From positions 245,548 to 265,547 of the forward strand of contig JAPEUI010000008.1 in NCBI GenBank assembly GCA_026025075.1: DNA of 20,000 nucleotides. The letters run 5' to 3'. A program made the position numbers and the translations under genes. Below, in pieces: positions 11,109 to 20,000 of this stretch (its first letter is position 1; each line of letters opens with the position of its first letter). This stretch comes from Vezdaea acicularis (lineage: Eukaryota). Under the pieces are notes generated by a model. The model saw only the letters and a list, made by a program, of their open reading frames with translations, searched no databases and was not told the origin of the DNA.

Positions 11109-13452
11109 CTAAGTGCATGGGCACACGGTGACAGTGACACCGACGTACGATGTCTGCAGATCCATACCGCTCATGCGACCCATGGCCGGCCCAGCTGTCT
11201 CAAGGGCACCGGGGTTCTCGCTTGCCAAGGCGGTAGGTGCGTCACCGAGAGTAGTCAGGTTGTCATCCGTGCTGAGGGGTTGCGTTGTTGAGGCAGTAGC
11301 GGAGACAGCGTCTACCGTAGTGGCAGTGCCGCTGCTAGATGAAGATGCAGATTCGGCAAAGACAGCAGGTGTTTTGTAAGGACTGGTTGTGGAGTCGGTA
11401 CAAGTGGTGCTCGTCGTGGCATCTGCGGTTGAACTGGAAGTGGCGGGAGCCGTGGATGCGGACTCGGCGAATACACCAGGGGTCTTGGCCGCGCTGGTGG
11501 AGTCGGAGTCGGTACAGGAGGTGCTTGTTGTGGCGTCCGTCGTGGTGGGGGTTGAGCGCTCAGCGAACATTGCTGGCGGCTTTGAAACGCTAACTCCATC
11601 TGTTGAGGATGTAGAAGTGCTAGTTGAGTTACCAGTACTTGTAGTGCAGGTACTGGAAGAGCTCGAACTGGACGTGGTGATAGACGAGGTGCTGGACAAG
11701 GGGTCTACTGCAGGGGACTGGGGGTCTGCTGTAGTAGCCGAGGTGGCCGTCGAGCTATCGGAAGAGCTTGAGGTCACAGAGGTGGCCGCCGAGGTGCTGG
11801 TAGACACCTCGGAGCTTGTGGAGCTACTGGACGAACTCGAGGACGTCGATGATGGTGTGGACGTTACGGAGGTGCTAGATGACGCCGAAGAGCTCGATGA
11901 AGTGCTCGACAAGCTAGAGGATATCGAGGAACTGCTTGAGCTAGCTGAGGTGCTGGGAGACGTTGAGGAGCTTGTAGAAGAGCTAGATGAGCTGGAAGAA
12001 GTAGAAGAGCTGGTAGAGGAGCTGGTAGAAGTCTTCGACGTGGACGTCGAGGTAGTTGAAGAGGTGGTTGAAGACGATGTAGAGGTAACGCTCGAGGTAG
12101 TCGATGTGGTCGAGGTGGTAGAAGTGGTCGAGGTGGTAGAAGTTGACGTGCTGGATGTTGTAGATGTCGTGGACGTCGTCGATGTTGTCGAAGTCGAAGT
12201 GGTCCTAGAGCGCACTCTCAGCATCTTCTATAACAGGACTTCTTCTAAATCTTTTCACTAACTTCGCTGGCGCAGCGCCCTGGGTGTACACCTTCAGCGA
12301 ATTCACGGACCAATACGCATCGCTAAATGCGCTGGGGTTGTTAGCAACATAGGCTTGGCAATCCCCATGTTGAGCGCCACTAGAAGTTGCGTGTCAGCCA
12401 CTGTTCGCATAAGATTCGGAAAGAGCAGAAGGCTAACCAGGCACCACTGTTAAAGTCTGCACCAGCCCAGTCACCACAGAAGGTAAGGTCAAAGATCTAA
12501 AGAGTTAGCTGTTGGGCCAATTAAATGTGCGCAGGGCTTATTCACCATCTGATGATTCTGGAAATGCTGGTCAATGTTGCAATCGCCCTGAAGGTTGGCG
12601 GCAGGAGTCCCCCAGGAAGCAGGGTTTGGGCTGGGCCCGTTGATATCTCCGGGCGCACTTCCGCGAGGGAAATAGTAAACCCTGATATAATCAGAGGTCC
12701 ATTCCATAGCGTAGGTGCCCCCTTTTCCAGCGTTAAAGCCACTGTAGGATTCTGGATTAGGGTCGACAACGCCGCACCCGGTGTTAGTGCCTTGTCCAGC
12801 GGCATTGATGTCGCAATTTCCAGTCTTCAAGGTCCCGCTTTGGCCAGAGCCTGAGATGGAACACCCTGGGGTTGTATGAGCAGATACAAGATCTGTAGCC
12901 TGGAGGTTGACGCCTTCCAGAATATCGATCTCGCCATGGCCAGGCCAATTCCCATCGCCTAGCGTCCACCAAGCCGGCCATGTGCCACAGATGCCACCAG
13001 GCATATGCTCAAGATCAAGAATGAAAAGTCCGTGTTGGTATCTAGCATTGCTGTAAAGACGCGTGCTAGGTCTTCCGGAACTAGACGCAACGTTGGTATG
13101 GTCGGCGCCGAAGGTGATACCTGACGCATTGCTAGCAAGCCCGTTGCTGAATGCGTAACCCTTATCAACATATCTGAACAGTAAATGTCAATATCGGTTA
13201 GGAGCGCATAGAAAGGGGTCTGATATACTTCACAAAACCATGGGTTGGGTCGGGTTCCTGGAAAGGTGGTCAGCCATACAACATTCACCCATAAACCCCT
13301 CACGCTGGACATACGGTGTCAAAACTCATCATATCAAAGAAGGTTTCCTGGTTGTAGTCATCTTTGAGGGTATAAACAGTCTGCTGCATCGAGCGCGAGA
13401 CTATGCCGAAAAGCACGAGGCCAATACTCAGAAGGATTGATGAGCTCGGCAT
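11109..13452 (-). CDS. Secreted glycoside hydrolase family 16 endo-1,3(4)-beta-glucanase (fungal Lam16A/Mlg1-like) with ~365-aa Ser/Thr-rich tail, 688 aa, complement(join(11109..12204,12263..12379,12438..12496,12546..13173,13229..13257,13315..13452))
   Basis: Signal-peptide-like N-terminus MPSSSILLSIGLVLFGIVSRSMQQ, then YTLKDDY, DPTHGFVKYVD, HMPGGICGTWPAWW, catalytic GEIDILEG (ExDxxE), GGTYAMEWT, IFDLTFCGDWAG and AYWSVNSLKVY. Five GT-AG introns (57, 55, 49, 58, 58 bp) give a 2067 nt in-frame CDS. Confidence 0.93.
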
Positions 13453-17775: not shown

Positions 17776-18593
17776 CAGAGCAAGCTCCGATTTCTAGTAT
17801 TGGCTTTCACATGCCGGTACTCGATCAGCAGATGCTAAAGGGTTAGCAAAGACTTCTCCGTGTACTCCGAAATGGTCTTGGTAATGAGAAGTGAGAGGGG
17901 ATCGAATCTTGTAAGGGTTTTACAACACCATGCAGCGGCTTCTGAGAAAACCTCGCGAGACGTCGAGACCAACCATCGGCACTGCCAAGCAAGAAGCTGC
18001 CCAATGCATAGAACTTCCTAATAATTGTACGCGTGGTAAATAAATACCTTAGATATGTCTCTTATTACCCTTCTTGCCAAATCGCGTAATCAATGGTGTG
18101 AAGTCACTCGGAGACCAGTCTCGACAAATGTTTGCCCTAACCTCGATTGTCTTGAAGACGGATCACAGCCAGAAATGCATTTCCTCTTCCAAAAAATTGG
18201 TAAAGTCATCATAATTCACCGGTGCAACTCAAGACGCTCGAAAAAAACAATTCTGATTAAGCCTCCATCATTCTAAAACCCACTGCCAAACTAACAGACT
18301 TCGGTGATTGAGCTGGCTGGGGTCAGAATAGTTGAAGAAAGGCGTTTAACCGATTTCCTGACCCAACGCGCATTCCAACTCAACACGCGCTTTTGCGACG
18401 CTTTGCGAGGTATGCGCCTCAAGACCCTACCGGCCAACCACGCAAAATATTCATTGAAAACTTATAAACTTATTAGATTATATCAAGGAACAGATGATAG
18501 TATATTGCATGATATCAATAAATTCCCAAATATCCCGCATGTATGCTGCAATGCAATTCAATCACCCTTGGCATGCGGTTTTTCGTAAGCGAG

Positions 18594-18677
18594 TGCCTTT
18601 AGGAATAGGTGGATGGTAGCCCTTCGACCGCCTATTCGTAAAGGCATGAGCCGTTAGCGAGCTATTAGCTACCGGCT
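18594..18677. repeat. Two adjacent inverted repeats (hairpins) bordering the tandem array
   Basis: Hairpin 1: TGCCTTTAGGAATAGGTGG (18594..18612) pairs with CCGCCTATTCGTAAAGGCA (18628..18646), giving 17 Watson-Crick pairs, 1 G-T pair and 1 mismatch, with a 15-nt loop. Hairpin 2: AGCCGTTAGC (18649..18658) pairs with GCTACCGGCT (18668..18677) at 9/10 positions. Confidence 0.8.
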
Positions 18678-18682
18678 TGCCT

Positions 18683-19195
18683 GCGCTTCAAGCGCTCGAA
18701 GCCTGGGGCAGCCGGCTTCACCCCGGGGTCGCTGGGGCGCTCCCGCAAGCGCTTGAAGCGCTCAAAGCCCCGGGCAGCTGGCTTCGCTCCGGGCTCGCTG
18801 GGGTGCTACTTCAAGCGCTTGAAGCGCTCAAAGCCTCAGGCAGCTAGCTTTGCTCCGGGCTCGCTGGGGCGCTACTTCAAGCGCTTAAAGCGCTCCAAGC
18901 CTAGGGCGGCCGGCTTTGCCCTGGGCTTGCTAGGGCGCTTCCGCGAGCGTTTGAAGCGCTTGAAGCGCTCAAATTGCCACGCAGCTGGTTTCGCTCCAGG
19001 CTTGCTGGGGGTTCTGCTTTAAGCGTTTAAAGCGCTTAAAGTCCAGAGCGGCCGGCTCTGCTCTGGGCTTACTAGAGTTCTATTTTAAGCACTTGAAGCG
19101 CTTAAGCCTGGGGCGGCTGGCTCTGCTTTGGACTAGCTGGAGCGTTCCTATAAGCATTTTAAGTGCTTTAAATGCCTAAAATTTAATACATTCAT
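18683..19195 (+). repeat. GC-rich tandem array of a 66-bp unit (~7 copies plus a degenerate eighth), left arm
   Basis: Units start at 18746, 18812, 18878 and 18944 (exact 66-bp spacing), then 19020, 19086 and 19151, with a first copy before 18746. Typical unit: CAAGCGCTTGAAGCGCTCAAAGCCCCGGGCAGCTGGCTTCGCTCCGGGCTCGCTGGGGTGCTACTT (44/66 GC). Confidence 0.95.
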
Positions 19196-19668
19196 TTTTG
19201 TAATATGTTTATTAAATCAAAAATTTTAAATCTTTACGCAATTGCAGTTTTGCTTATACTTAATATTTTAATTGCTTCAACTATTCTAAAAATATTAAAT
19301 TAATTATGATATAATATGTATCAATATGAACTGTATAAAGTTTTAGGTGTTGCGGATAAAATAAATGAACGCATCTATTAAATCTAATTGATTCATGTTT
19401 TAATTATCTTTTAAATATCAAATTGCAAGGAATTTTTCAAAAATGTTAGTATTAGTTATTTTCAAATATAAATTGTTTTATTGCTCCAAAAAAATTCTTG
19501 ATAAAATCGTACCAATGTTTTTCTATTAATTATTTTCATCAATATCTAACAAGATTTTAACTATTTTTATCAATTATTTTTACTTTTAATATTAGATTAA
19601 TTAATTTAGGAATTAATAATATTAAAATACTAAAATATTCTATTCAATAATTAAAAATATTTTTTTAG
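19196..19668. other. AT-rich non-coding core between inverted repeat arms
   Basis: Hand count gives 78 G+C in 460 bases (19201..19660), about 17% GC, versus roughly 50% for the rest of the window. No ORF lies within it. Confidence 0.9.
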
Positions 19669-20000
19669 CAGTGCAAAAGCTCAAAATCGGCAATTTGAGC
19701 GTGAATAGCATTGCGCTTTAAGCGTTTCAAACGCTTGAAGCGCTCATAGGAGCGCTCTAGCAAACTCAATGAGAAGCCGGCTGCCTGGAGCTTGAAGCGC
19801 TTAAAGCACTTCAAGCACTCTTGAAAGCGCCCCAGCGAGCCCAGGGCACAGCCGACTGCTTTGGGCTTCAAGCGCTTGAAGCAGCGCTTGCTGCAGCACC
19901 CCAGCAAGCCCGGAGCAAAGCCGGCCGCCCCAGGCTTGGAGCGCTTCAAGCGCTTGTGGGAGCGCCCCAGCGAGCCCGGAGCGAAGCCAGCTGCCCGGGG
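19669..20000 (-). repeat. Same 66-bp-unit tandem array in inverted orientation, right arm (truncated by window edge)
   Basis: The reverse complement of 19965..20000 is identical (36/36) to 18768..18803. The minus-strand unit 19956..19891 is a full 66-bp copy, and about three more degenerate copies follow towards the core. Confidence 0.95.

Follow-up and report, generated by a model that had tools for sequence, protein, structure and literature searches.

The last 20 kb of contig C294 (JAPEUI010000008.1; genome assembly of 18.9 Mb in 315 contigs), a 20,000-nt stretch referred to here as the window, end in two repeat arrays that oppose each other across an AT-rich core, and raise the question of what such a structure is and how it came to lie there. 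We propose that it is very probably a non-autonomous, foldback-shaped member of a KDZ DNA-transposon family, most likely Dileera, which has no genes and probably borrows the enzyme of a large KDZ transposon. Transposition is deduced here from sequence comparison. The original prediction of a Foldback-class transposon was right about the transposon and about the foldback shape, but the name applies to the shape only, the transposase being KDZ. As this enzyme belongs to a known superfamily, the locus is not the novel system that had been envisaged.

Architecture of the window element

The element starts at position 18563, directly after an 8-bp target-site duplication, AATTCAAT (18555-18562, plus strand), and 31 bp left of 18594, where its start had originally been placed; in a DNA search, similarity to other contigs begins at 18563. 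The tip CACCCTTGGCATGCGGT (18563-18579, plus strand) is near-invariant in 12 aligned ends and common to all subfamilies and to the 25-kb KDZ element described below. It is followed by a TAAGCGA box at tip positions 24-30 (18586-18592, plus strand), of which letters 1-6 are invariant and the last nearly so in the conservation line of the 12-end alignment, and by a subterminal palindrome (18594-18646, no strand assigned). The left arm (18683-19177, plus strand) comprises seven ~66-bp units, each with the 13-mer GCGCTT(C/G)AAGCGC, plus 9-bp expansions. A non-coding core of 498 bp (19178-19675, no strand assigned) separates it from the right arm (19676-20000, minus strand), an inverted array that is incomplete because the window ends at the end of the contig.

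The two GC-rich arrays of one unit on either side of a ~83% AT core were located as originally described: Tandem Repeats Finder (TRF) places the 66-bp array at 18683-19122 (score 346-412) and the inverted array at 19799-19996, the core is 82.7% AT and the arms are 59-60% GC, with 74% in the outer unit of the left arm and 49-58% in its inner three. Positions 18768-18803 are indeed the exact reverse complement of 19965-20000, a 36-bp match that extends to 118 nt at 87%. A count by eye gave 31 of 41 mirrored positions for the inner ends, and comparison of the arms bore out that the order of unit variants is unlike between them. The hairpins fared less uniformly. The first one (18594-18646) exceeds chance (z -6.0, with 0 of 200 shuffles as stable), but one 66-bp unit on its own is no more stably folded than its shuffled versions (z -0.03), and therefore only the first hairpin is notable as a structure.

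The rightward extension that had been recommended for finding the terminus led to contig C302, on which the opposite tip and a second AATTCAAT occupy G000:C302:1-143, the 8-mer itself lying after the tip at 136-143. With this inferred far end, the full length of the window copy is ~1.64 kb. The copy sits between ordinary genes, a thiolase on the left and a 517-aa open reading frame (ORF) of C302 on the right.

Dispersed copies and target-site duplications

Searching the genome with a 16-nt tip pattern yielded 26 matches, 20 exact and 6 with one mismatch, and the common box and arm follow 25 of them; the one-mismatch match at C1:112581, which has neither box nor arm, was dropped as an end. Allowing two mismatches gave 20 matches in the genome, fewer than the 26 obtained in the control. 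By flanking 8-mer, 18 of the 25 ends can be matched into nine pairs, where chance would yield ~0.009 pairs in a set of this size; the other seven have no partner. Because the pair formed by the start of C294 and C1 duplicates the C244 site, the independent paired sites number eight. Copies complete on a single contig with matched duplications are found on C82 (1662 bp) and C244 (1555 bp), and six of the nine pairs were joined across contigs solely by duplication and tip type. The 8-bp duplications differ from copy to copy, and C294 and C269 carry two copies apiece. Dispersed copies, target-site duplications and a larger transposase-bearing copy, by which a transposon was to be recognized, were thus all encountered.

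The core was seen in seven copies, and that of the window is 91-99% identical to the five compared, with differences that are mostly transitions. In four moss-metagenome runs, which stem from one study and may not be independent of the window's source, depth at the C82 locus was 61-78, 27-30, 28-36 and 8-12 over the core and about 4-16, 3-6.5, 2-6 and 2-4.5 over the flanks; the core is multicopy, at 2-10 times flank depth in all four runs. No empty-site joint at C82 was listed in these runs. The alignment of one contig of run X1 starts only at L004:2954 and leaves 7 letters unplaced, the pattern that a putative empty allele would give. The tip pattern was not found in JGI metagenome contigs.

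Several copies carry further insertions or rearrangements. The right arm of a C269 copy is interrupted by an LTR retrotransposon (L064:2332-8519; G000:C269, after 102031) with open gag-like (692 aa) and pol-like (1384 aa) frames, which is of putative Ty3/gypsy type as read from these ORFs. The full-length copy on C60 (L003; G000:C60:33234-34745) has unlike 8-mers at its two ends, and is either an assembly chimera or the product of a rearrangement in which copies at two loci recombined; on the right, its flank has 77% similarity to cargo DNA from a subfamily-D element on C269. An unrelated ~240-bp element with its own inverted ends occurs as a single copy at L082:546-785 (G000:C1) and twice in a row in a subfamily-D arm at L075:8987-9461 (G000:C291).

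Conserved end motifs

The 12 aligned ends, drawn from five subfamilies, are colinear over the tip, the TAAGCGA box, CCTT and CCTAT blocks and the first 13-mer, which was located at 120-122 nt from the tip in each of the subfamilies checked. Past this point nothing but the 13-mer is kept between subfamilies, and its spacing changes from 66 bp in the window subfamily to 60 and 43-45 bp in the KDZ element and ~65 bp in subfamily D. The genome holds 84 such sites, against 1 for a reversed control, and of the 50 sites listed out of the 84, 46 lie in element arms as judged by position. By analogy with Galileo, we predict that the 13-mer is a transposase binding site. The fixed parts of the ends (tip, box and palindromic 13-mer) are direct candidates for transposase recognition.

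The subterminal hairpin is strong in the window subfamily and the KDZ element (z -6.0 and -9.0) and weak or absent in subfamilies B (-0.2), D (-1.9) and C (+1.1). We rejected it as a requirement, since B and C have matched duplications all the same; strong only in the window subfamily and the KDZ element, it is not needed by all subfamilies. In the C269 copy (L005:1501-1590; G000:C269:100644) the hairpin loop is exactly inverted, a micro-inversion between the stem arms.

Two further arrays were noted. A 146-bp tandem array at L094:2222-2670 (G000:C226) contains the same 13-mer and no tip, and is possibly the inner arm of another large family member. A degenerate array of ~20-bp units (GACGTATTAGGG-like; L076:6620-7100, G000:C66), decaying by transitions, lies ~1.3 kb inside a subfamily-C end.

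A 25-kb relative encodes a KDZ transposase

One end pair, with the duplication CAGAAATA, spans contigs C281 and C87 (L071-L073; G000:C281:80101-97504 and C87:1-7911) and delimits an element of 25,188 bp. The two contigs share an overlap of exactly 127 nt, which falls in a short repeat, and over 553 bp the arm of one is an 88% inverted match to that of the other. This large element shares with the small one the same tip and the repeated 13-mer GCGCTT(C/G)AAGCGC. Of 15 ORFs scanned against Pfam, 14 belong to it, and one of 697 codons matches the KDZ (Kyakuja-Dileera-Zisupton) transposase family (PF18758, E 6.4e-40). Neither P nor THAP matches nor a TET/JBP domain turned up among the 15 ORFs scanned; the transposase between the ends of the family is KDZ, and not a P-type enzyme with THAP.

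The catalytic KDZ exon is uninterrupted, and the C87 transposase read from it is putative. A CxC1 match in the C87 exon is weak (E 0.046) and split by introns; the homolog P0005 matches CxC1 at E 2e-11, with CxC2 also passing at 1e-7. In 13 aligned proteins, D114, D230 and E287 are invariant or nearly so, and we predict from the alignment that they form the DDE triad. Two genes of the KDZ family were recovered by a search of the genome. The C147 gene, with 67% identity, is followed up to the contig end by an arm composed of the same 13-mers; C147 also carries homologs of genes from both C281 and C87.

Several genes of the 25-kb element lack Pfam families and have homologs on C147, C269 and L088. 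Among them are a 345-aa ORF with a kinase-like appearance on visual inspection, an HMG-box-like ORF (E 0.008, below cut-off) with a conserved neighbor and two paralogs of a tryptophan-rich protein. An accessory protein present in two copies in the element, and also in L088, is predicted to begin with a homeodomain-like three-helix fold; the model (pLDDT 64) gave Z scores of 4-5 in structure comparison (best 5.1), which are not diagnostic, and no Foldseek match at E 0.001. The best Atlas score of the protein was 0.76, with 0.75 for a Rap1-Myb cluster, and the resemblance is no more than a lead. A second accessory ORF had no usable Atlas match. The nearest metagenome KDZ locus, L088 (WNFX01013411.1), is 50% identical, with the same accessory genes. 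It contains a 17-copy array of 29 bp (L088:11174-11703) unlike that of the window family, and no recognizable tip; the array suggests that terminal arrays are general in this KDZ branch. About 40 of the first 133 nt differ between the tips of the small element and the KDZ element; with the differences in unit spacing, the true helper could therefore be another, unassembled KDZ copy.

Relationship to known transposons

Passages of Kojima 2025 (PMC12730594) give 8-bp duplications for Zisupton and Dileera, and 7-bp duplications without terminal inverted repeats (TIRs) for Kyakuja. The 8-bp duplications and long inverted arms observed here do not fit Kyakuja as described there. The Dileera consensus rows in the supplement of that work start with GACCT, GACCT, CACCC and CACCT (Dileera-1_PTrit with CACCCCATGCG) and span 9.8-20 kb; the tip CACCCT of our family agrees with the Dileera combination of a CACC/GACC tip and an 8-bp duplication. 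Together with the weak CxC1 signal, these traits suggest the Dileera lineage, whose members include Cryptococcus KDZ1-3 and the rust elements Zisupton-1_PGr, Dileera-1_PTrit and Dileera-2_MLP.

The family resembles Dileera, as characterized in these sources, in its KDZ transposase with a putative CxC1 cluster, 8-bp duplications, TIRs, large size with extra genes and CACC/GACC tips, but its host is a Pezizomycotina ascomycete, as indicated by the homologs of a window protein in Caeruleum, Pycnora and Thelocarpon (Lichinomycetes in the wide sense), and its parent element is 25 kb long, compared with the 9-20 kb listed for Dileera. The accounts of Cryptococcus KDZ1-3 describe CxC1, 8-bp duplications and TIRs of 139-241 bp (PMC11343200; bioRxiv 2025.05.19.654958), whereas the arms here are long arrays of one palindromic 13-mer. 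The Cryptococcus study also reports no mobile non-autonomous KDZ copies (bioRxiv 2025.05.19.654958), unlike the gene-less 1.6-kb derivative found here, and in its published version (PMC12810828) the 12 of 17 passages covered here name no KDZ target motif. With Zisupton the family shares the transposase superfamily and the 8-bp duplications, and the Agaricus consensus Zisupton-22_AB likewise has repeats near its end (PMC12730594 supplement), but the Zisupton tips listed begin with CAGATATG, CGGATATG, GCCTT or GGGGC (PMC12730594).

In shape the family belongs to the foldback-like class, as its arms are modular, inverted and built of tandem units, vary between copies and enclose a non-repeated middle. 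Galileo and Foldback, as portrayed in PMC3688188 and PMC3573991, similarly have long repetitive inverted arms with variable unit number, chimeric copies and arm-only derivatives, and the tandem TIR units of Galileo carry transposase binding sites (PMC3688188). Galileo is a P/THAP element, and since the matching transposase here is KDZ, the likeness is architectural only.

A survey lists KDZ elements in Basidiomycota, Rhizophagus, Mucoromycotina and Allomyces (Muszewska 2017, PMC5751038), and automatic annotation gives 'Zisupton' counts in three of four Sporothrix genomes (PMC9281073); these counts and the Agaricus end repeats lower the novelty of the family. A literature search, with most subscription journals outside its reach, found neither a non-autonomous foldback KDZ element nor an E-box-positioned DNA-transposon insertion. 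Mechanistic work on KDZ transposons, which are large and whose mobility was shown only recently, is almost lacking, and the gene-less 1.6-kb form that occurs here naturally could serve directly as the donor in transposition assays.

Alternative origins of the element

Another transposase (MULE, hAT or P) might move the element, with the KDZ gene as a passenger or with ends that have become alike by convergence. Such an origin would accommodate the 8-bp duplications, which passages of PMC12730594 also give for hAT, as well as the foldback-shaped arms known for the P-family element Galileo (PMC3573991, PMC3688188) and the four MULE matches in the genome. We nevertheless consider it unlikely, as both KDZ genes found adjoin arms of this family. 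No tip within one mismatch lies near any MULE match, and no MULE match lies near any of the 50 listed sites out of the 84 of the 13-mer (C312 falls outside this part). The hAT dimerization domain (PF05699) has no match in the genome, a weak point given that control genomes were also without a match.

A short centromere of the kind in which inverted repeats enclose an AT-rich core had been proposed on the strength of the overall shape, inverted arms around an 83% AT core. We regard this as the least probable of the origins weighed here, and highly unlikely, given the target-site duplications that differ between copies, the two copies each on C294 and C269 and the ordinary genes around the window copy. 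In addition, the ends are shared with a transposase-bearing element, one copy is interrupted by an LTR retrotransposon and another insertion lies inside the cargo of a related large element. That the structure is an artefact of short-read assembly is only marginally less improbable than a centromere: contigs do break in the arms with 127-nt overlaps, so that the interiors of near-identical copies and of the C60 copy may be chimeric, but complete copies with matching duplications exist on C82 and C244, and arms and core stand at raised depth in four of four separately assembled runs (of the one study noted above, maybe not independent).

For the KDZ element that we favor, the transposase would be supplied in trans, perhaps with accessory proteins of the large element, and would bind the repeated palindromic 13-mers in both arms, pair the two ends, cut at the CACCC tips and paste with an 8-bp stagger, the AT core acting as a spacer. 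Through recombination, the long repeated arms may gain or lose units and overwrite each other. Such a system would offer a compact substrate for working out KDZ transposition.

Probable arm recombination and candidate origins of the core

Unit number and 9-bp expansions vary among copies. The two tips of the window copy, one in the window and one on C302, are identical at all but 1 of 133 nt and have in common a variant seen in none of the other 9 tips of the subfamily; the tips of its nearest core relatives (C60, and the C294 start with C1) are 7-8 differences apart. These near-identical tips with a private variant suggest a recent arm-to-arm conversion. The C185/C253 copy combines a near-identical core with subfamily-B tips at both ends, and this core/tip junction is present in all four moss-metagenome runs.

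Several origins and functions for the core and arms were tried and rejected. The AT core does not appear to consist of decayed units, as the best transition-tolerant match was 45/66, compared with 43.9 in shuffles, with no periodicity, and low-stringency searches gave no match to the large elements. Most differences between cores are transitions (for example, 26:3 and 36:8), but the C/T variation is spread over CpA (58/175), CpG (80/276), CpC (47/232) and CpT (47/233) in a rough count, unlike classical RIP. A 117-aa open frame in the arm has no start codon, no Pfam match above cut-off and frame shifts in the C244 and C269 copies, and no Rfam match to the core pointed to a structured RNA up to E 0.1.

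Most insertions lie at a fixed short distance from E-boxes

The positional link to the E-box, CACGTG, is the surprising and testable part of our findings. We read 23 ends outward, leaving two duplicates of the C244 site out of the 25. An exact CACGTG starts 17-20 nt outside the element in 6 of the 23 ends (17, 18, 18, 19, 20 and 20 nt), and a CACGTG within one mismatch is found at 17-21 nt in 12, where windows of the same width 30-200 nt off give local backgrounds of 0.8% and 1.8%, respectively (P 2e-8 exact and 1e-15 within one mismatch). Counted by site, the figure is 11 of 15, and after merging of related flanks 9 of 13 loci (P 2e-10). The 17-21-nt window was picked after inspection of the data and 15 sites are a small sample; the margin is nonetheless larger than a roughly estimated correction of 25,000 for the motifs and windows tried. 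No other hexamer scored as high in any 5-nt window across positions 9-63, with the exception of the overlapping CGTGAC (5). The window copy and the C82, C66 and C231/C246 sites lack an E-box at the expected place; at C82, exact boxes occur farther out, 43 and 64 nt away. The insertions on C244 and at C269:96398 flank the same CACGGG of a host repeat from opposite sides, each 18 nt away, and this host repeat, ~250 bp long (L006:3060-3294, L082:332-549, L063:4145-4398), was thereby hit at least twice.

CACGTG is the site of Cbf1-type basic helix-loop-helix (bHLH) factors. On balance, we lean towards a model in which insertion is usually placed 17-21 nt from CACGTG via a bound host factor of this predicted type, which would tether the transposition complex or open and bend the neighboring DNA. 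That the link has another basis, with a protein of the element itself reading CACGTG or with insertion into open promoter DNA rich in this motif, is a serious possibility to which we give a little less than an even chance; it bears on targeting alone and leaves the KDZ identity untouched. Genome-wide, CACGTG occurs at 2805 sites in 18.9 Mb, and its roughly tenfold enrichment within 200 nt of the ends relative to the genome speaks for this alternative. Reading by an element protein would be consistent with the HMG-box-like protein of the large element, itself a match below cut-off, and with the two copies of the predicted homeodomain-like protein, whose structural scores are not diagnostic. The near-matches, however, number 12 at 17-21 nt and 9 across all other positions from 1 to 80, and a peak only 5 nt wide makes open chromatin alone insufficient. 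The two insertions on either side of one CACGGG, each at 18 nt, likewise speak against this alternative, within which direct reading by an element-encoded protein is still plausible.

Tethering recalls the retrotransposon Tf1 of fission yeast, whose insertion into open promoters is guided by the sequence-specific host DNA-binding factor Sap1, in the account of PMC5371812. Tf1 is an LTR element with an experimentally shown tether, whereas here a DNA transposon, an E-box and a predicted factor are concerned. Taken as a whole, we judge it somewhat probable that this ascomycete Dileera-like KDZ branch practices targeted cut-and-paste transposition, choosing an 8-bp target 17-21 nt from E-boxes via a Cbf1-type factor or an accessory protein of its own. 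If so, these elements would land beside, and not in, promoter signals, as a DNA-transposon counterpart of Tf1-Sap1 targeting. Should the distance hold in more insertions, it would constitute a target-selection rule for a eukaryotic DNA transposon, testable through one host factor, by which elements preferentially settle near promoter signals in a compact 19-Mb fungal genome.

Repeats of ~140 bp, each with two CACGTG 20-21 bp apart, were observed at L004:3000-3440 (G000:C82) and L096:2080-2560 (G000:C1:283089-283558); one such array starts 43 nt from the C82 insertion.

Other features of the window

Elsewhere in the window, positions 11109-13187 hold a gene with a sub-threshold resemblance to glycoside hydrolase 16 (E 9e-4) and, after it, a long Ser/Thr-rich frame; a 293-aa Val/Glu/Asp-rich shadow frame runs on the opposite strand. 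The best named homologs of one window protein, from Caeruleum, Pycnora and Thelocarpon, are 67-68% identical.
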